A stretch of 64,000 bases of DNA, taken from contig JAZODI010000029.1 in NCBI GenBank assembly GCA_045596965.1, forward strand, positions 20,779-84,778. Direction: 5' to 3'. Origin of the DNA: Eubacteriales bacterium (GTDB lineage Bacteria > Bacillota > Clostridia > Oscillospirales > QAKW01). Each line of letters opens with the position of its first letter. Position 1 is the first letter of the stretch. Under the pieces are notes generated by a model that saw only the letters and a list, made by a program, of their open reading frames with translations, did not search any database and was not told the DNA's origin. The position numbers and the translations under genes are program-made. This document shows, in pieces, positions 33,515 to 48,915 of this stretch.

Positions 33515-34792
33515 TGTGCTATATCCGAAAAATTAAAATGATTTGAACCACGAAAGTTCGATTAAATTGTTTGGCTTATATCATCAGCATGACGCTTGAA
33601 ATAAGCTTCTTCTGTAGCATTTGGAGTGCGATATCGATTGATTTGATGCGGTCTTTTGTCATTATAAAAATCAATGTACTTTTGTACCCGCTCCCTAAAC
33701 TCTCTTTCAGAACGATAGTTGTTCCGATATAATTCCTCTGCTTTTAAGGATTTGAAAAATGCTTCCATAACTGAATTGTCGTACGGTGTTGCAGTTCTTG
33801 ATAGTGATTGCGTGATTCCCAGTGTTTTGCAAAACGTTGAGAAAGAACGTGAAGTATAGTTGGCACCGCGGTCACTATGGAATAATAAACCTTCCTTTGG
33901 ATTTCGATCATAGTATGCTTTTGCCAGCGTTTCTTTTGTAATTCGTGAACTGTTGCCGGTGGAAATGGTATAAGCAATTACTTTTCTTGCGAATAGGTCA
34001 ATAACTACGCAGATAAAATATTGGATTTTTTTGCATGTGAAGTAAGTAACATCACTAATCCATACTTCGTTTGGTGCCGAAGCAGTAAACTGTTGGCTGA
34101 GAATATTTTCTTTTCTTTCCTTATTCATTTCATAGATTGCCTTCGCGCCACCACGCACACTAAACCATCCGTTTTCGTGCATGATGGCTGCTACTGTTTT
34201 ATCGGCAACAACGTATCCGCGGCTTCTCAAAATGGCATTAATTTTACTGGCACCAAAGATCTGATTGCTTTCGTTAAAAATCTCTTCAATGATTGGTGTA
34301 ATCTCTTTCTTTTTACGCATATACGATGTATTCTCATTAGCATTTCTAAGTATGTGATTATAATAACTGCCTTTTGCGACTTTTAAAGCCTGACAAAGCA
34401 GATTGATGGAGTAAGTGCCGGATAGGTCTTTAATAACCTGATATCGATCGTGCAAAGGTGCGCTAACCGGGCAAGGCGATAACTGCAACACCTCTACCAT
34501 CTTTTCTAATGTTTCGCAACGCTGCCGTAGTATCCGAAAGTCCGACATGTTGATAGTTTTGCTTTTCTTTTTGTTATTGGATTTTGTCCACTCATAAATA
34601 GTACTTTTAGCGATGCCGGTGTCTTCACAAATACTTGCTACTTTTTCCCCAGAGCGATAGCGCTGCAGGATTTCGTTTCTCTGTTCCTCAGTATAAATTT
34701 TCTTCATAATATAAACCTCCTGAACTTTGTACGGGTAAAAAGTAAACTTACTCATCATTATTGTACAAAGTTTTGGATGGCAAGTGAACACA
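33515..34792 (-). mobile_element. IS3-family insertion sequence (boundaries tentative)
   Basis: Contains the fused HTH+DDE transposase. Both proposed ends start with TGTG and share an 'ATCC.AAAA' string, but the inverted repeats are weak and no clean target duplication was found. Confidence 0.45.
33562..34707 (-). CDS. IS3-family transposase (HTH + rve/DDE integrase core, single fused ORF)
   Basis: N-terminal HTH 'ICEDTGIAKSTIYEW'. DDE core 'WISDVTYF', 'HSDRGANYTS', 'PYDNSVMEAFFKSLKAE'. ATG at 34707 preceded by AGGAGG; the ORF track extends to 34821. Confidence 0.9.
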   Translation of the reverse strand: MKKIYTEEQRNEILQRYRSGEKVASICEDTGIAKSTIYEWTKSNNKKKSKTINMSDFRILRQRCETLEKMVEVLQLSPCPVSAPLHDRYQVIKDLSGTYSINLLCQALKVAKGSYYNHILRNANENTSYMRKKKEITPIIEEIFNESNQIFGASKINAILRSRGYVVADKTVAAIMHENGWFSVRGGAKAIYEMNKERKENILSQQFTASAPNEVWISDVTYFTCKKIQYFICVVIDLFARKVIAYTISTGNSSRITKETLAKAYYDRNPKEGLLFHSDRGANYTSRSFSTFCKTLGITQSLSRTATPYDNSVMEAFFKSLKAEELYRNNYRSEREFRERVQKYIDFYNDKRPHQINRYRTPNATEEAYFKRHADDISQTI

Positions 34793-34950
34793 CTAGGACC
34801 GTTACAGTAACGGTGGGACAATGAGTTTTGATAATTTTTTTGATTGTAACTGATTTTTTAAAATACATGCATCGTGACTCCTTTGTTAATCTTTTGTTGT
34901 CGAAATGTGTTGAATTGTATGAAAAATATGGTAAAATATAAGAGAAAGGA

Positions 34951-37539
34951 GTGTTGATAGTGGAATTAATTTCAACAATGGGCACGGGTTTAATATGCAG
35001 TGCTCTATATGATACAGTAAAATTTGTTATTGATAAGTTTATTGATAAATATGAGGATAAGAAAGGTAAGAAAGAGTTAATTGAAAATATAACTAAAGAA
35101 CTTTATTCTAATGTTCCAGAAGAATGTAAAAAAGTTTTGGATTCAGGAACCTTTGTGGAGTATCTTAATTCATATCGCTTTTTAGATTTGTTCAACACAT
35201 ATTTAGAACAAAAAGTAATGACAAATTATGCTAGTAAAAATGCGAAGTTAAGGAAGATTATTAACTCGCGCGGAATTATTACTATAGATACAGTCTTAAA
35301 TCATATAACAGATAAATTAGTGGATTTATATGATCAAAACAAGGTGTTAACACCTCCGTCAAGAAATGATATATACAAAACTTTGGATCATATTATTCAA
35401 GTGAGCGAAAGAGTTATAATGTCTACTCTTTCGCCTGATAATTCCAGAATGCTATATTCGATTAATGCTAGGATGGATGAAATTGGTGCTAGAATTATTG
35501 ATCAAATTATCATTCTCCAAGAAAGCTTTCAAATTATAGAAAAGAAATTATTTTCTGCAAAATTTTCTGTTGAAGATTTTGAAAAAACGAGAAAACAATA
35601 TTATGAAATCTTAAAAGAGAAAAATGCAGAAGCTCATATTTATCTTCTTGATAAATTTCCTTTTAATTCTTTTTATGTCCCGCCTGTTTTGGGTAAATCA
35701 AGAAAGAATTTTATGGGAATGCCACTTCATGTAGCACGAAGAAGAGGTTTGTGTGTGACGTGGGATAATATATTTTCAACTAGTAATATCGTCTATGTTG
35801 TTGGCGGTGCAGGTTATGGAAAATCTTTATTCGAAAAGAAAATTATTAATGATTATAAAAACTTGAATATTTTTCGAGCTGATGAGTATATTGTTTTATA
35901 TGGAGAGTTAAAATCGTTTTATCCAAATAATGTAGATTCACCAATCTCAGTTATTGACTTTTTAAAAAACAGTGTACGTTCTAACACACTTATAGATGTG
36001 TCGGATGAATTTATTCAACATTATCTTGATGCCGGCAGATGTATTATATTATTGGACGCATTAGACGAGGTGGATAAAAATAAACGAGATTCATTGCATG
36101 AAACGGTTGCTTCTTTCTTTAAAAAGCAGAATCCAAATAATAAAATATGTATTACATCGCGCGAAAGAGGGTTTCTGCCTGAAAAAAATATTGAGGTGTT
36201 TAATATTTATCCCCTTGATAGAGAACAAATCGAAGAATATGTTGATAAAATAATTGCATTAGGGCGATTTGAATCTACAGATAAAGCAGCATTTATTGAA
36301 CAAACAGAGGAATTGATCGAAAAAGGCTTTTTGAATAGTTTTTTAGTATTATCTTTATTGGTAAACATATATAAAGCAGAACGTGAACTTCCCGAAAATA
36401 AGCTGGAATTATATCAAAAATGTTTTGATTATATTGCTAATAAACGTGAAAAAGAAAAAACGGGTGAAGAGTTTGACTGGTCGCAAATAATTCCTTTAAT
36501 GAAAGATAGTACCTTTATTGAGTTGTCTCAGATGTGTCTTCCTAATAATACAAGTGTTGATAAAGCACATATCAAGGAAAAACTGCTCGAGGTATATAAA
36601 AATAAATTTTCTTCAGAAGCAGAACTGGAAAATGCCCTTGAAGAATTTCTTAAATTTTGTTCAGAGAGAACAGAATTGTTTGTGCCATCAGAAGAGGAAA
36701 GATTTAAGTTTTTTCATCGTTCCTTTTTTGAATACTTTTATGCGAAATATATTACAAAGAGATTTCATAGTGCAGTTGAAAGATTGAATGAATTAACAAA
36801 ATTTGATATAGATTCAGAAATATTTGAACTGACTGTTGCAATGTTAAAGCAAGATTATGAGCAGGACTATCAAGCATTAATTGATCTAATGTTTGATAAG
36901 GTTGAGGAAGAGTTTAAAAACTCCTTATCCGATTTCCAAATATTCAACATTTTGATATTGTCGATGCAAGTAATTGACGATGCATTGTATCGGGATAAAT
37001 TTGTTCAGTTAATCGAAGTTAATAAGAGAATTATTTTATCCAATTATGAAAAGGTACAGAATCTTCATTTGTTTGGTGAAATATTTAAGAATTCTAAAGA
37101 ACACAGTCTTCGAATTGCAAAAGCGTACGAGGATGAATCGGTGCTATGTTTATTAAAAAATTGTGTTGAGTTTTTCTATTTAATAGATAATTCTGAAGAT
37201 ATTAATATTGACGAGTTTTTGGAACGTGATTTATCGAACTTGGATATGCTTTCCTTAAGGCGAAGAAAAATGTTTGATAGAAAAGATCTTTGGTATGCGT
37301 TTTATATGAGAGAATTCGTAAAGGTTATAGATTGTCATGAGTTGCTTACAAATATTGATATTGAAAGAATTCTCGAGGTTCATAAAAAGTTTAGACCTAA
37401 CAATTATAGAAAACCTTCACAAAAAGCAGAGGAAGCTGTAAATAGATATCGTGATTTATTAGGAAAAAAACAATCTAATGCTTTAAAAATTATCACCACT
37501 TATTTTGGAATTATAGGTCACGTTATTTACATTGCGTAA
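34951..37539 (+). CDS. STAND-class P-loop NTPase with NACHT module (candidate antiphage sensor); N- and C-terminal domains unassigned
   Basis: 862 aa. Walker A 'GGAGYGKS' (nt 35803-35826), Walker B 'CIILLDALDEVD' (from nt 36040), 'ICITSRE', 'NSFLVLSLLVNIY', 'FFHRSFFEYFYAKY'. The start is ambiguous: GTG 34951, GTG 34960 (best RBS spacing) or ATG 34978. Confidence 0.85.
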   Translation: MLIVELISTMGTGLICSALYDTVKFVIDKFIDKYEDKKGKKELIENITKELYSNVPEECKKVLDSGTFVEYLNSYRFLDLFNTYLEQKVMTNYASKNAKLRKIINSRGIITIDTVLNHITDKLVDLYDQNKVLTPPSRNDIYKTLDHIIQVSERVIMSTLSPDNSRMLYSINARMDEIGARIIDQIIILQESFQIIEKKLFSAKFSVEDFEKTRKQYYEILKEKNAEAHIYLLDKFPFNSFYVPPVLGKSRKNFMGMPLHVARRRGLCVTWDNIFSTSNIVYVVGGAGYGKSLFEKKIINDYKNLNIFRADEYIVLYGELKSFYPNNVDSPISVIDFLKNSVRSNTLIDVSDEFIQHYLDAGRCIILLDALDEVDKNKRDSLHETVASFFKKQNPNNKICITSRERGFLPEKNIEVFNIYPLDREQIEEYVDKIIALGRFESTDKAAFIEQTEELIEKGFLNSFLVLSLLVNIYKAERELPENKLELYQKCFDYIANKREKEKTGEEFDWSQIIPLMKDSTFIELSQMCLPNNTSVDKAHIKEKLLEVYKNKFSSEAELENALEEFLKFCSERTELFVPSEEERFKFFHRSFFEYFYAKYITKRFHSAVERLNELTKFDIDSEIFELTVAMLKQDYEQDYQALIDLMFDKVEEEFKNSLSDFQIFNILILSMQVIDDALYRDKFVQLIEVNKRIILSNYEKVQNLHLFGEIFKNSKEHSLRIAKAYEDESVLCLLKNCVEFFYLIDNSEDINIDEFLERDLSNLDMLSLRRRKMFDRKDLWYAFYMREFVKVIDCHELLTNIDIERILEVHKKFRPNNYRKPSQKAEEAVNRYRDLLGKKQSNALKIITTYFGIIGHVIYIA

Positions 37540-37745: not shown

Positions 37746-37970
37746 ATGGAAAAGAAACTATGTTACGAAGATGGAAGAGAATTGTTCGTTAATAAGCTCT
37801 GCAAGTTAATGAACGAGAGAAATTTATCTTGCCAGTATCTGAGTAGTAAGATAAAAAAGAATGATGGATATATCAACCGTATTATCAATGGTAAAAAAGA
37901 TCCTTCTTTTGAGGTGCTGTTTGATATCGCATCTGCTCTGAAGGTCACAGTAGCTGAATTGTTCGAATAA
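37746..37970 (+). CDS. XRE-family helix-turn-helix transcriptional regulator
   Basis: 74 aa. 'LSCQYLSSKIKKNDGYINRIINGKKDPSFEVLFDIASALKVTVAELF' is the Cro/C1 HTH_3 pattern. RBS 'gagtgagg'. Confidence 0.8.
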   Translation: MEKKLCYEDGRELFVNKLCKLMNERNLSCQYLSSKIKKNDGYINRIINGKKDPSFEVLFDIASALKVTVAELFE

Positions 37971-38230: not shown

Positions 38231-38403
38231 GATGTTGTAATAGTGCTTTTCTTATGTGACCCAGTTTTAGGGTGAACCATGCGTTAATAGGGGAGAGAAG
38301 TATTTTATCAACTAAATATATTATTTGATAACGGTTGTAGTTTTGCAGGCGTTTGCTTTGCATTGCCGTTATAAATTTCAAGGGAACTTTCTGCATTTTT
38401 GTA

Positions 38404-38432
38404 TTGCAGAAAGTGCTTTTTTATGTTATAAT
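38404..38432 (+). promoter_or_regulatory. sigma-A promoter (copy 1 of the 'tttatgttataat' promoter module)
   Basis: TTGCAG, 17-nt spacer, TATAAT. Confidence 0.55.
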
Positions 38433-38438
38433 GCATTC

Positions 38439-38544
38439 GTAAAGAAAATCCGGGTTAAACCCGGTAAAATTAAGGGTTTCTCACCAGTTCTTTTTTGGAC
38501 ACGAGAGACAAAAAACTCTCGTTCCGAAGAACGAGAGTTTTTTT
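38439..38544 (+). ncRNA. putative leader/attenuator RNA with mutually exclusive antiterminator and terminator hairpins
   Basis: 'acgagag' (38501-38507) or 'acgagag' (38531-38537) can each pair with 'ctctcgt' (38516-38522). The downstream pairing is followed by 'ttttttt'. There is also a 5' hairpin 'ccggg..cccgg' (38451-38465). Confidence 0.4.
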
Positions 38545-38564
38545 ATCCAAGCCGACAGGCTTGG

Positions 38565-38781
38565 TATATCATCACGACGCAGTCGTGTATATCATCAACA
38601 CGGCGTTGCCGTGTTGTATCTCATCACACCGTTAAGTGTGCATTAAAAATTTGTCGGCTTGATGATATACAAAACTTCGTTTTGATGATATGCAATTCCT
38701 GCGGAATTGATGATATACAATGCTCCGCATTGATTTTTCGTTGTTTCTATGCTATAATACACTCAAGGCGGTGATGATATG
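38565..38781. repeat. nested inverted array of a 10-mer, with a different mini-palindrome in every spacer
   Basis: Forward TATATCATCA copies at 38565, 38588 and 38617 (the third degenerate). Inverted TGATGATAT(A/G)C copies at 38660, 38683, 38708 and 38772. Confidence 0.8.
38730..38758 (+). promoter_or_regulatory. sigma-A promoter of the 172-aa ORF (copy 2 of the promoter module)
   Basis: TTGATT, 17-nt spacer, TATAAT. 38 of 46 nt identical to 48828-48873. Confidence 0.55.
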
Positions 38782-39297
38782 AAAAAGAAAAGAATTGCTT
38801 TGGTTGTTATTGGTGTTATTGTAATTCTTCTTGCAATAAATTTTTTTGTCAATGGTTTTGAATTTTCTATTTACGGTGTCTGCAGTTTTAATTCGAAATA
38901 TTATGATTCTCCAAAAATCGCTTTTGAACAAAATGAGGAAATAGACATTTCGGAAGATATAGGAATAGCTGAAATTGATTCGCATAATGTGATGTATTTT
39001 GCTAAAACCGAAGATGGAAACATACTTGCTGCTCAGATGAAGTGTAAAAATGACGGCTATTTCTTTGTTGGCGATTATAGTTTGTCTTCTGATTATTCTT
39101 TTGAATCACTTTTGCCTAATGAGTATCCTTTTTCTAAGAACTGTATGTACAAGGAAAATGGTCTATTCAAGTGCAACTTTGAATATTTCATAACCAAAAA
39201 ACTGGTTGATCCGAATATTGAAGGATGCACAGTTAAAAGATTTGATATCGGCACTGATGAAAATTTATATTTTGTATATAAAATTATAGATGAATAA
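38779..39297 (+). CDS. hypothetical membrane-anchored/secreted protein
   Basis: 172 aa. N-terminal 'MKKKRIALVVIGVIVILLAINFF' signal/anchor. No recognisable domain. Its start codon lies inside the last TGATGATATG repeat. Confidence 0.65.
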   Translation: MKKKRIALVVIGVIVILLAINFFVNGFEFSIYGVCSFNSKYYDSPKIAFEQNEEIDISEDIGIAEIDSHNVMYFAKTEDGNILAAQMKCKNDGYFFVGDYSLSSDYSFESLLPNEYPFSKNCMYKENGLFKCNFEYFITKKLVDPNIEGCTVKRFDIGTDENLYFVYKIIDE

Positions 39298-39382
39298 ATT
39301 GACGATAAAAATAATAACTAAAGAAAATCCTCGGTTTTCAGGCACATTTCATTCGTGCCATTAAGTTCAAAACACCCAAACG

Positions 39383-39414
39383 AAAATCCGTTCTCAAAAG
39401 AGAACGGATTTTTT
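39383..39414 (+). terminator. rho-independent terminator
   Basis: Stem 'aaaatccgttctc'/'gagaacggatttt' plus a T-run. Confidence 0.8.
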
Positions 39415-39546
39415 GTTTGTTTTATTCACTATTTATTTTTTATCATTCATTATTCATCAAATAATGAATAATTTCGGTATGGCTTGGACACAAATTATTA
39501 TTTCTTCCTTAAATATGGTTTTTTACTTATATTCTTGATTTTGAGG

Positions 39547-39575
39547 TTGACTGTTTTATATAGATGAGTTATAAT
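39547..39575 (+). promoter_or_regulatory. sigma-A promoter of the riboswitch-led operon
   Basis: TTGACT, 17-nt spacer, TATAAT. Confidence 0.65.
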
Positions 39576-39602
39576 AAAACAAATTAAATACCGATATAAG
39601 AA

Positions 39603-39802
39603 GATACGGTTTGAAAAGTTGTTAGCTGAGTAAATGAAAAAGGGAATCAGGTTCGAATCCTGAACAACCGCCATTACTGTATTTGACTGAATGGAAACAA
39701 AAAGTCCATTGAAGTGTTGGGTAGTAATGCTTGCACTTTGAGAAGGATAGTTTCCCCGGCAATACACATTGCCGCATCATAAGTCAGGAAACCTGCCGTG
39801 TC
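39603..39802 (+). promoter_or_regulatory. cobalamin (B12) riboswitch aptamer
   Basis: Core 'AAAAGGGAATCAGGTTCGAATCCTGAACAACCGCCATTACTGT' and B12 box 'AAGTCAGGAAACCTGCC'. P1 is 'gatacgg' (39603-39609) pairing with 'ccgtgtc' (39796-39802). Confidence 0.85.
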
Positions 39803-39832
39803 TTTTTAGGTTCAACACAACTTTGGTGAGAA

Positions 39833-39995: not shown

Positions 39996-40301
39996 GTGAC
40001 AAATGAAGAGAAAAAGTCCTTGGCGGAAGAACTTTTACGTCAAAAAGCCAAGGAACTCGGAAGATTGCCTCGTAAAGATGATTTCGATGAACCCACTCGT
40101 TCGCGAATCAAAGCCTTCTTAGGTCCTTGGCCGAGAGCATTGGAAGCTGCAGGACTCAAAGAACCGAGAACGATTTCAAAAAAATCGGAAAAACGCAAAA
40201 AAGCGGCAACCAAATCCAAAAAACAAGCCATTTCGGCTCATCAGAAGTTGGAACGTCGCAGAGCGAAAGCCAACGAGAATAAAGAAAAAACAATTGATTA
40301 A
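39996..40301 (+). CDS. small basic protein with one homing-endonuclease-associated (HNH_repeat-like) motif
   Basis: 101 aa. GTG start after 'aaaggaggg'. 'AKELGRLPRKDDFDE...IKAFLGPWPRALEAAGL' followed by a Lys/Arg-rich tail. Confidence 0.6.
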   Translation: MTNEEKKSLAEELLRQKAKELGRLPRKDDFDEPTRSRIKAFLGPWPRALEAAGLKEPRTISKKSEKRKKAATKSKKQAISAHQKLERRRAKANENKEKTID

Positions 40302-48769: not shown

Positions 48770-48830
48770 ATATATAACGATCCGCCTTAGGCGCATGTAA
48801 TCAGTTCCATATTACGAACAAAGCGTTGCA

Positions 48831-48859
48831 TTGATTTTTCACCGCTTTTATGTTATAAT
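48831..48859 (+). promoter_or_regulatory. sigma-A promoter (copy 3 of the promoter module)
   Basis: TTGATT, 17-nt spacer, TATAAT. Confidence 0.5.
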
Positions 48860-48915
48860 ACACCTAAGGCGGTTATTTTTTGGATTTTATTGTAGAATTC
48901 TTGTTGACTTTTTGG

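Follow-up and report, generated by a model that had tools for sequence, protein, structure and literature searches.

Among the features of a 64,000-nt stretch of DNA from an Eubacteriales bacterium (GCA_045596965.1, contig JAZODI010000029.1, positions 20,779-84,778 of the forward strand), hereafter referred to as the window, an array of small palindromes at 38545-38735 raises the question of what kind of element it represents and whether it is read as RNA or as DNA. The analysis reported here identifies the array as a member of a repeat family that is widespread in gut Clostridia and is a sister of the Rfam orphan motif Gut-1 (RF01706). The description of Gut-1, published in 2010, drew on 43 human-gut metagenome sequences and rated the motif as certainly RNA on the basis of covariation, with no known function (PMC2864571). 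The window array is a real, non-random element, a polarity-reversed and sequence-divergent variant of this catalogued and unexplained motif, and its weight lies in its family and in its cassette context, not in a special tie to the downstream gene for a 172-aa protein or to a nearby XRE gene.

Architecture of the array and its immediate flanks

The array spans ~190 bp and consists of seven small hairpins joined by a constant linker of 8-10 bases in a two-fold symmetric arrangement. Matches to TATATCATCA, exact or with one mismatch, start at 38565, 38588 and 38617 on the + strand and lie at 38660, 38683, 38708 and 38772 on the - strand. The window contains 20 such matches, against an expectation of 6.8 +/- 2.6 that reached 20 in none of 100 shuffles, and seven of the 20 cluster at 38565-38781; chance or low complexity as the source of the array is ruled out by these shuffles.

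The element opens with hairpin 1 (H1, 38547-38564, + strand), an inverted repeat of the form CCAAGCC GACA GGCTTGG. In the left half-array (38565-38640, + strand), the linkers TATATCATCA, TATATCATCA and TATCTCATCA alternate with H2 (38573-38587), H3 (38596-38616) and H4 (38625-38640), with + strand loops GCA, GTT and CGTTAA, respectively. At the centre (38641-38661, + strand), a degenerate fourth linker, CATTAAAAATT, is followed by TGTCGGCTTG, the complement of the H1 left arm and loop, so that 38548-38557 and 38652-38661 are complementary over 10 nt (100%). The right half-array (38660-38732, - strand) carries linkers that read TGATGATATA, TGATGATATG and TGATGATATA on the + strand and alternate with H5 (38670-38684), H6 (38693-38709) and H7 (38718-38732), with - strand loops GAA, GCA and GGA. 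In the left half it is the + strand whose linker is free of G; in the right half, it is the - strand. On the strand that contains G, the repeat unit reads GA(T/G)AT(A/G)-hairpin-TGAT, with an unpaired linker of 8 nt (TATATCAT/ATGATATA), and arrays built from this unit are designated type-a.

The initial annotation of this locus, made from the sequence alone, had described three forward copies of a 10-mer facing four reverse copies, with a different mini-palindrome in every spacer. The repeat search confirms the inverted arrangement, and all seven spacers are indeed hairpins, each different. The three reverse copies within the array start where they had been placed, with end coordinates off by one, but the fourth (38772-38781) does not belong to the array. 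It is the Shine-Dalgarno (SD)-spacer-ATG string GGTGATGATATG (GGTGA+TGAT+ATG), the commonest translation-initiation region of the cassette family described below. Since this string is found behind many unrelated array types, its likeness to the linker is coincidental; the longest match between array motif and SD-ATG region averages 5.98 nt, versus 5.84 nt in permutations (p = 0.21). The nested fold proposed at the same time, in which 10-mers 1:6, 2:5 and 3:4 pair, is reproduced as the minimum free energy structure of 38540-38790 in both RNAfold and DNA folding, with z = -6.8 (RNA) and -6.3 (DNA). As a conserved structure it does not hold, because the number of units differs between the halves of homologous arrays, which have 1+3, 2+3, 3+2 and 3+4 units.

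Upstream, the array begins directly after the T-run of a bidirectional intrinsic terminator (38510-38543), made up of an A-run, a 15-bp stem (100% complementary), a 4-nt loop and the T-run. Downstream, it leads into the sigma-70-type promoter of the 172-aa gene (38730-38758, + strand; 10/12 match), in which a -35 element TTGATT (38730-38735), built from the 3' arm of H7 plus ATT, is separated by a 17-nt spacer from a TG-extended -10 element TATAAT (38753-38758). The 172-aa open reading frame (ORF), the cargo of this cassette slot (38765-39297, + strand), has the SD sequence AAGGCGGTGA, a TGAT spacer and an ATG at 38779; it encodes an N-terminal transmembrane segment, and a Pfam search of it returned no match. 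Because the array sits between a strong terminator and the promoter, it lies outside the mRNA of the 172-aa ORF.

A repeat family of gut Clostridia and its cassette setting

Arrays of this kind occur in more than 100 Oscillospirales genomes and on at least 120 metagenome contigs; the type-a pattern alone is found on at least 120 metagenome contigs, human gut samples included, and on three contigs from viral collections, where it lies beside tRNAs. Near-identical arrays are found across many species. A generic search yielded the set on which the family statistics are based, comprising 105 distinct arrays with ~20 linker 7-mers, 333 spacers and 183 distinct hairpins. Each array follows a terminator, in many cases that of a tRNA, and 62 of 70 arrays are closely preceded by a T-run; the half-arrays are always present as inverted pairs, in two polarities that are about equally frequent (37 of class I, 33 of class II). 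Since both polarities exist, the conserved feature is the two-fold symmetry rather than the orientation relative to transcription. Repeats are spaced by 23, 29, 23 and 25 bp in the window and by 19-33 bp in homologues, and the repeats could be in helical phase only if the hairpins fold away.

Proteins 95% identical to the product of the 172-aa ORF are encoded on two metagenome contigs (L001 and L002). There, the gene follows a different array, composed of four copies of (A/G)TGATAT(A/C) and then four of TATATCAT, again with hairpin spacers, and more distant orthologues (L003-L007) have no array at all. Window-type arrays are present elsewhere on L001 and L002, after a tRNA or a tRNA 3'-end fragment plus terminator and before unrelated genes. 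In these copies the 10-mers are kept and the stems change compensatorily (CCAAGCC/GGCTTGG to CCATTGC/GCAATGG), which is the pattern of covarying hairpins around a fixed 10-mer that the initial annotation had suggested looking for, and the L001 allele of H1, CCATTGC GAAA GCAATGG, has a matching centre.

The relationship to Gut-1 emerges from sister arrays in L001, L079, L091 and L095, which match RF01706 at 45-68 bits. The matches correspond to arrays with GUGAAAU- or AUGAUAU-like linkers and always form a convergent pair of + and - strand hits. Of the two halves of the window array, 38561-38650 (- strand) reaches 14.5 bits and 38641-38721 (+ strand) 12.9 bits, below the curated gathering score of 50 bits, and other Rfam families gave only sub-threshold noise (miRNA and snoRNA models). 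The initial annotation overlooked the sister arrays already catalogued in Rfam. Gut-1 and the window array share a general layout of three variable GC-rich hairpins (three per half in the window) with a short constant A/U/G linker between them, a habitat in gut Clostridia or gut metagenomes and an unexplained function. They differ in the linker, which is AUGAUAUA (8-10 nt) in the window and as RNA would read (U)GAUGAUAU(A/G), with 8 unpaired nt, against the purine-rich GUGAAAU with three unpaired bases in Gut-1. They also differ in polarity, the model strand converging on the centre in the Rfam matches and diverging from it in the window array, and in composition, the Rfam entry being a single RNA and the elements studied here an obligatory inverted pair between terminator and promoter.

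The initial judgement that the array matches neither CRISPR nor classical repetitive extragenic palindromic (REP) elements is borne out. The repeats of CRISPR loci are identical, at least 23 nt long and set in a single orientation, with unique, non-palindromic spacers; here, the repeats are 8-10 nt long, occur in two orientations and enclose palindromic spacers of 11-21 nt. The GC-rich hairpin followed by a T/U tract that defines a terminator is seen only at 38510-38543 and at H7 (38718-38732 plus ATTTTT), the internal hairpins being followed by TATATCAT/ATGATATA, and an interpretation as tandem weak terminators was rejected on the grounds that the linkers are not U-tracts. A free miniature inverted-repeat transposable element was likewise rejected, since the arrays hold a fixed orientation relative to the terminator, as was a transposon with ends flanking the cassette, since a gene usually stands between half-arrays of two different types.

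The genes that follow these arrays constitute a second layer of conservation. The promoter/SD string GCTATAATACACNCAAGGYGGTGA occurs exactly in at least 118 species-representative genomes, which among the matches listed are all metagenome-assembled genomes (Acutalibacteraceae, Oscillospiraceae, Faecousia and unclassified Clostridia), and the -10/5' untranslated region (UTR)/SD string TATAATACACNCAAGGYGGTGA is kept in at least 118 genome loci. Behind this promoter/SD, 113 cassette ORFs were analysed; they form 77 unrelated clusters, complete ORFs have a median length of 155 aa, and 46 of 127 cassette slots lie directly after a same-strand tRNA. The cargo includes GNAT, isochorismatase, glutaminase, MBL, HAD, GDPD, PTH2, ADP-ribosylglycohydrolase and DMP19 domains, together with many small membrane proteins. 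On L001, every intergenic region presents, in order, a conserved 3' UTR, a terminator, a symmetric repeat array and the conserved promoter with SD; the linker motif changes from junction to junction, and one junction is devoid of an array.

Type-a units are drawn from a limited shared pool, varying in order and number, and the variable base of the unit moves together with the hairpin after it. In three arrays (L105, L117 and L135), a 33-nt piece with two hairpins has been inserted in the right half exactly at TTGAT^GATAT, and in two other type-a arrays a 43-nt two-hairpin piece lies within the loop of hairpin 1, preceded by GCAG and followed by GCAG (L209) or GTAG (L230). Contig L136, which encodes an identical XRE protein, shares the upstream region through the terminator; homology stops exactly after the T-run, and from the next base onwards L136 carries a different array (of GTGATAT type) and a different gene. 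When one ORF is compared between genomes, the shared sequence extends only ~42-55 nt upstream (promoter -10/5' UTR) and 20-60 nt downstream (3' UTR). It follows that ORFs, terminators and arrays assort independently, and that the exchange points lie in the conserved flanks and not in the array. A survey in which all ORFs within 4-10 kb of ~250 array loci were clustered returned no consistently linked recombinase or HUH gene; the recurrent neighbours were host genes (Hsp33, a methyltransferase and tRNAs), and large serine recombinases occurred at only 7 of these loci.

Hairpin statistics and the form in which the array may be read

Taking a stem of at least 4 bp as the criterion, 292 of the 333 spacers between linkers form hairpins, compared with 87 of 333 after shuffling. 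The hairpins comprise 183 distinct sequences that keep their pairing, and they are under selection. Their loops are strand-specific. GNA or GNNA loops number 100 on the strand with the G-free linker and 10 on the other (binomial p = 8e-20), and the preference changes between top and bottom strand from one half to the other; in the window, such loops are GACA and GCA on the + strand of H1 and the left half, and GAA, GCA and GGA on the - strand of the right half. The closing pair is C:G in 80 of 84 GNA/GNNA loops, and 16 of 39 GNNA tetraloops are GNYA. Triloops make up about half of the array loops (80 of 161 distinct hairpins; 92 of 183 in the separate tally from the loop list used for the test), whereas 29 bona fide terminators from the same regions have 23 tetraloops, mostly GNRA or UUCG, and only four triloops (Fisher p = 2e-4). 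Loops of the d(GNA) and d(GNNA) type closed by C:G are extraordinarily stable in DNA, and their RNA counterparts are much weaker (PMC3201870, PMC13037366).

A second regularity concerns the centre, which in nearly all arrays is the complement of the first-hairpin left arm, often together with its loop, or of the terminator itself. This complementarity has a median length of 11 nt (cross-type controls, 6 nt) and recurs in more than 25 different sequence versions; the pairing of first-hairpin arm and centre is thus the conserved long-range pairing of the family. An origin of the centre as a target-site duplication was discarded, since the type-a centre complements the loop too, which makes it a partner in pairing and not a direct duplicate.

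The hairpins must matter in a single-stranded or extruded state, to judge from the variable spacing, the compensatory stem changes and the strand specificity of the loops. We tentatively favour, at less than even odds, the reading that the array is a DNA-level hairpin platform, most nearly akin to REP elements and bacterial interspersed mosaic elements (BIMEs), that is read by a single-stranded DNA (ssDNA)- or hairpin-binding protein. It is favoured because a dedicated transcript fits poorly with four features, namely two-fold symmetry, the existence of arrays in either polarity, a location that separates a strong terminator from a promoter, and DNA-type loop rules. The shuffling of units, the insertions at joints and the block replacement of arrays, which recall mobile DNA, also speak for it. 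On this reading, DNA would be the active form, and the array would serve the host as a module that sets a terminator apart from the promoter after it, to which it contributes the -35 element. When the region is single-stranded, as in replication, repair or transfer, or is negatively supercoiled, the palindromic spacers could snap into mini-hairpins, optimised on whichever strand bears the G-free linker TATATCAT (top to the left of the centre, bottom to the right). Each strand would then present, in two-fold symmetric fashion, three to four units of a compact hairpin and an 8-nt single-stranded linker. This is the format used by ssDNA-specific proteins such as the primases at G4/ssi sites, the N4 virion RNA polymerase and the HUH/RAYT nucleases at REPs, and a trans-encoded protein of that general kind may bind the linkers between the hairpins.

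Two groups of known DNA elements offer partial parallels for such a platform. The DNA mini-hairpin signals of G4-type complementary-strand origins, RSF1010 ssiA/ssiB and N4 early promoters also have GNA/GNNA loops with C:G closure and act in ssDNA or supercoiled DNA, where they are read by primases or polymerases (reviewed in PMC13037366); the array loops agree with the d(cGNAg)/d(cGNNAg) rule of these signals. They are single hairpins of defined sequence in replicons and phage genomes, whereas the arrays have three to four variable hairpins per strand and occupy many chromosomal junctions. In RSF1010, two such signals are placed on opposite strands, which recalls the two-fold layout of the half-arrays. 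With REP, BIME and REPIN elements (PMC2817692, PMC3116915), the arrays share short extragenic hairpin repeats in both orientations, clustered after gene ends and terminators, a conserved tag beside the hairpin, a probable reading as ssDNA and a spread within and between genomes. They also differ in several respects. REP hairpins are conserved in sequence within a genome as one imperfect palindrome of 20-40 nt, but the array hairpins are all different (183 among 105 arrays) and only the linker is conserved. The REP tag is GTAG or CGTC, in contrast to the GA(T/G)AT(A/G)-hairpin-TGAT units found here. REP units alternate in orientation and array units form two inverted blocks. REP elements go with a cognate RAYT (Y1 HUH) transposase in the genome; in the flanks of the ~250 loci, no such gene was found to recur.

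Several points tell against a DNA-level platform. Extruding hairpins of 4-9 bp from duplex DNA is energetically costly, and heptad arrays without hairpins occupy the same slot, so the hairpins are not indispensable. As GNRA loops also work well in RNA, the loop statistics are indirect evidence. Within 4-10 kb of the ~250 loci, no gene for a HUH, RAYT or integrase protein was found to recur. The AU...GU stem base typical of Gut-1 pairs (A-U, U.G) only on the G-containing strand, with 39 U.G against 11 A.C, and this is the strand opposite to that favoured by the loops; as a general strand test the comparison of G.U and A.C wobbles was set aside as uninformative, since the excess stems from this one systematic position. 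Finally, Weinberg et al. rated Gut-1 as 'certainly RNA' on covariation (PMC2864571).

These points lead to the alternative that the half-arrays act as structured RNA, either as a small non-coding RNA or as the tail of read-through or antisense transcripts, a serious rival, though likewise at less than even odds. Hairpins and long-range pairings would then make up a multi-branched structure, insulating neighbouring transcription units by fail-safe termination, by posing a barrier to RNase III or exonucleases, or by sequestering proteins on the repeated linkers. The RF01706 matches of the sister arrays at 45-68 bits to a motif classed as RNA on covariation (PMC2864571) speak for this, as do the RNA fold of the window element (z = -6.8) and the U.G pairs at the stem bases, which suit a transcript of the G-containing strand. 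The centre complement of terminator or hairpin 1 arm often precedes a U-rich tract, possibly forming a second terminator that shares one arm, and a position directly after gene ends would suit an insulator. Yet the arrays come after strong terminators and before the promoter, and a promoter search found none for either half; a single transcript needs neither obligatory inverted pairs nor two opposite polarities. The strand with good loops switches between the halves, loop usage is unlike that of real terminators in the same DNA, and the window halves reach only 14.5 and 12.9 bits against the Gut-1 model.

The remaining alternatives treat the array as DNA, or its repeats as part of a message. 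Were it a recombination site of the integron attC type, a site-specific recombinase would act on the folded array to insert, excise or exchange the small genes that accumulate behind tRNA genes. We deem this unlikely, even though a conserved promoter/SD fronts 113 ORFs of 77 unrelated clusters, 46 of 127 slots follow a tRNA, near-identical strains differ in gene content and insertions occur at defined joints. Like attC sites, which act as folded ssDNA, the arrays are structure-conserved, sequence-variable inverted repeats between small, diverse, same-orientation genes. An attC site is a single imperfect hairpin with R''/L'' and L'/R' boxes (RYYYAAC ... GTTRRRY), but reading of the sequence reveals seven separate hairpins and no core boxes. 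Crossover in attC takes place inside the site, but here same-ORF homology ends in the flanks, within the promoter -10/5' UTR and the 3' UTR. Arrays, terminators and ORFs assort independently, some junctions lack an array, the genes have their own conserved promoter, and no integrase recurs near the ~250 loci. A duplex operator or centromere-like array, bound by a small DNA-binding protein (the adjacent XRE protein, as initially suggested, or a ribbon-helix-helix protein of the omega or ParR type) that controls the downstream promoter, appears improbable. Its direct and inverted repeat blocks do adjoin the promoter -35, as in the iteron or heptad arrays of pSM19035 omega and ParR/parC, and hairpin-less family members in the same slot look very similar to such arrays; several linker motifs (ATATCAC, TTCACT) also appear to resemble the WATCACW heptads bound by omega. 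Iterons are regularly or contiguously spaced, however, and the 19-33 bp spacing seen here lacks phasing. A duplex binder would leave palindromic spacers, compensatory changes and strand-specific loops unexplained, at least 12 motif types would demand as many regulators, and no cognate binding-protein gene accompanies the arrays. No homologue of the XRE protein was found in the 135 other array-bearing loci (919 kb), nor any of the NACHT or IS3 transposase proteins encoded nearby, so that linkage of the arrays to any of these genes was rejected, and the gene for the identical XRE protein in L136 stands beside a different array type. Very improbable, lastly, is the anti-start-codon switch of the initial annotation, in which upstream UAUAUCAUCA copies would pair with UGAUGAUAUG at the start of the 172-aa ORF and gate its translation. 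The 10-nt complementarity between 38566-38575 and 38771-38780 exists, but the -10 element (38753-38758) lies downstream of the array, so the mRNA would not contain it. The start region is the generic one of the cassettes, present with many array types and not associated with the array motif, and the L001/L002 orthologue keeps it behind a different array; it differs in the array-less distant orthologues (L003-L007). Of the functional roles first proposed, only a recombination or origin structure is still compatible with the data.

A broader proposal builds on the DNA-level hairpin platform and is more speculative; we regard it as having a rather small chance of being correct. The arrays and their promoter/3' UTR flanks would be the cis sites of an undescribed integron-like cassette platform of gut Oscillospirales, located behind tRNA genes, in which a trans-encoded enzyme reading folded ssDNA (hairpin and linker units on both strands) captures or shuffles small genes, or primes their replication or repair. 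The Rfam 'Gut-1 RNA' would then be a DNA signal and not an RNA.

Neighbouring features, related loci and biological meaning

Several features of the window surround the array and its cassette. Immediately upstream, a putative 'empty cassette' (38418-38509, + strand) consists of the promoter-like TTTTTATGTTATAAT, which is an 81% direct repeat of the real promoter at 38744-38764, joined directly to a conserved cassette 3' UTR segment (aaagaaaatcc...cagttcttttttggacacgagagac). This segment is also found in the L001 intergenic regions and is kept in L136, and the arrangement looks like a precise removal of an ORF. Downstream, the 172-aa ORF ends with a 3' UTR of the cassette kind and a terminator (39382-39413, + strand), followed by a truncated next junction module (39413-39470, + strand), in which a degenerate heptad array without hairpins reads ATTCACT/ATTCATT ... 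AATGAAT; intact heptad arrays (five ATTATTC, a centre copying the terminator arm, five GAATAAT) are seen in L027, L125 and other loci. Beyond it lie a promoter-like site (39547-39575) and a cobalamin riboswitch (RF00174, 75.7 bits; 39590-39814, + strand), upstream of genes for an HNH_repeat protein (39996-40301) and a 951-aa protein.

On the other side, the segment 33095-37970 comprises tRNA-Asp, tRNA-Phe and tRNA-Cys, followed by an IS3-type transposase (33562-34821, - strand), a NACHT STAND NTPase (34951-37539) and the 74-aa XRE protein (37746-37970). The IS3/NACHT/XRE stretch resembles an island inserted between tRNA-Cys and the cassette region. The transposase gene holds one match to TATATCATCA, but without any inverted-repeat relation to the array, and an interpretation of the repeats as IS3 ends was dropped. 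Hsp33, the methyltransferase and the tRNAs form a conserved host locus in eight other loci. A second copy of the cassette promoter/SD (TATAATACACCTAAGGCGGTTA, two mismatches) is located at 48800-48875, where it has no array; before it stands a fragment similar to the final hairpin of type-a arrays (gcgttgcattgattttt). A blastn search of 38400-39400 against phage and plasmid collections gave no matches, and a phage or plasmid origin was rejected on this basis.

Related loci display further variants. Chains of same-orientation small genes with a shared promoter, SD, 3' UTR and terminator are seen in L001 (1-6400), L091, L095, L079, L045 and L054, and their cargo differs between near-identical strains; they constitute an integron-like cassette landscape behind rRNA and tRNA genes in Oscillospirales, of which we found no description in the literature searched, just as a search for this architecture in Clostridia returned nothing beyond the Gut-1 entry. 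Three copies of a tRNA-Asn 3' end (ggttcgagtccaacagggggcgcc) in L001, at ~330-350, 635-660 and 2190-2212, are separated by a repeated segment of ~200 nt and resemble remnants of serial integrations at a tRNA. In L197 (~1-120 of the displayed segment), two type-a arrays flank one bidirectional terminator, each with its hairpin 1 end toward the terminator. In L046, L064 and L080, after tRNA-Cys or others, an array of type ACATCATT/AACGATGT ends in a hairpin that supplies a -35 element (TTGCAC) leading straight to the -10, the usual ccgcttttatgc spacer being missing.

For more than 15 years Gut-1 was an orphan 'RNA' for which human-gut reads were the sole source; the window and its relatives now provide its genomic setting. 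Gut-1-like elements occur as obligatory inverted pairs beside terminators, at the junctions of tRNA-linked series of small genes with a shared promoter and ribosome-binding site, in more than 100 species-level genomes. The loop statistics turn the question of whether they are RNA or DNA into a concrete test. If they do serve as a DNA-level hairpin platform, they would link gene-cassette exchange with enzymes that read ssDNA and with REP-like biology, in a gut lineage that is dominant and poorly cultured. Their terminator-array-promoter modules, as natural insulated expression slots, could serve the engineering of Clostridia.

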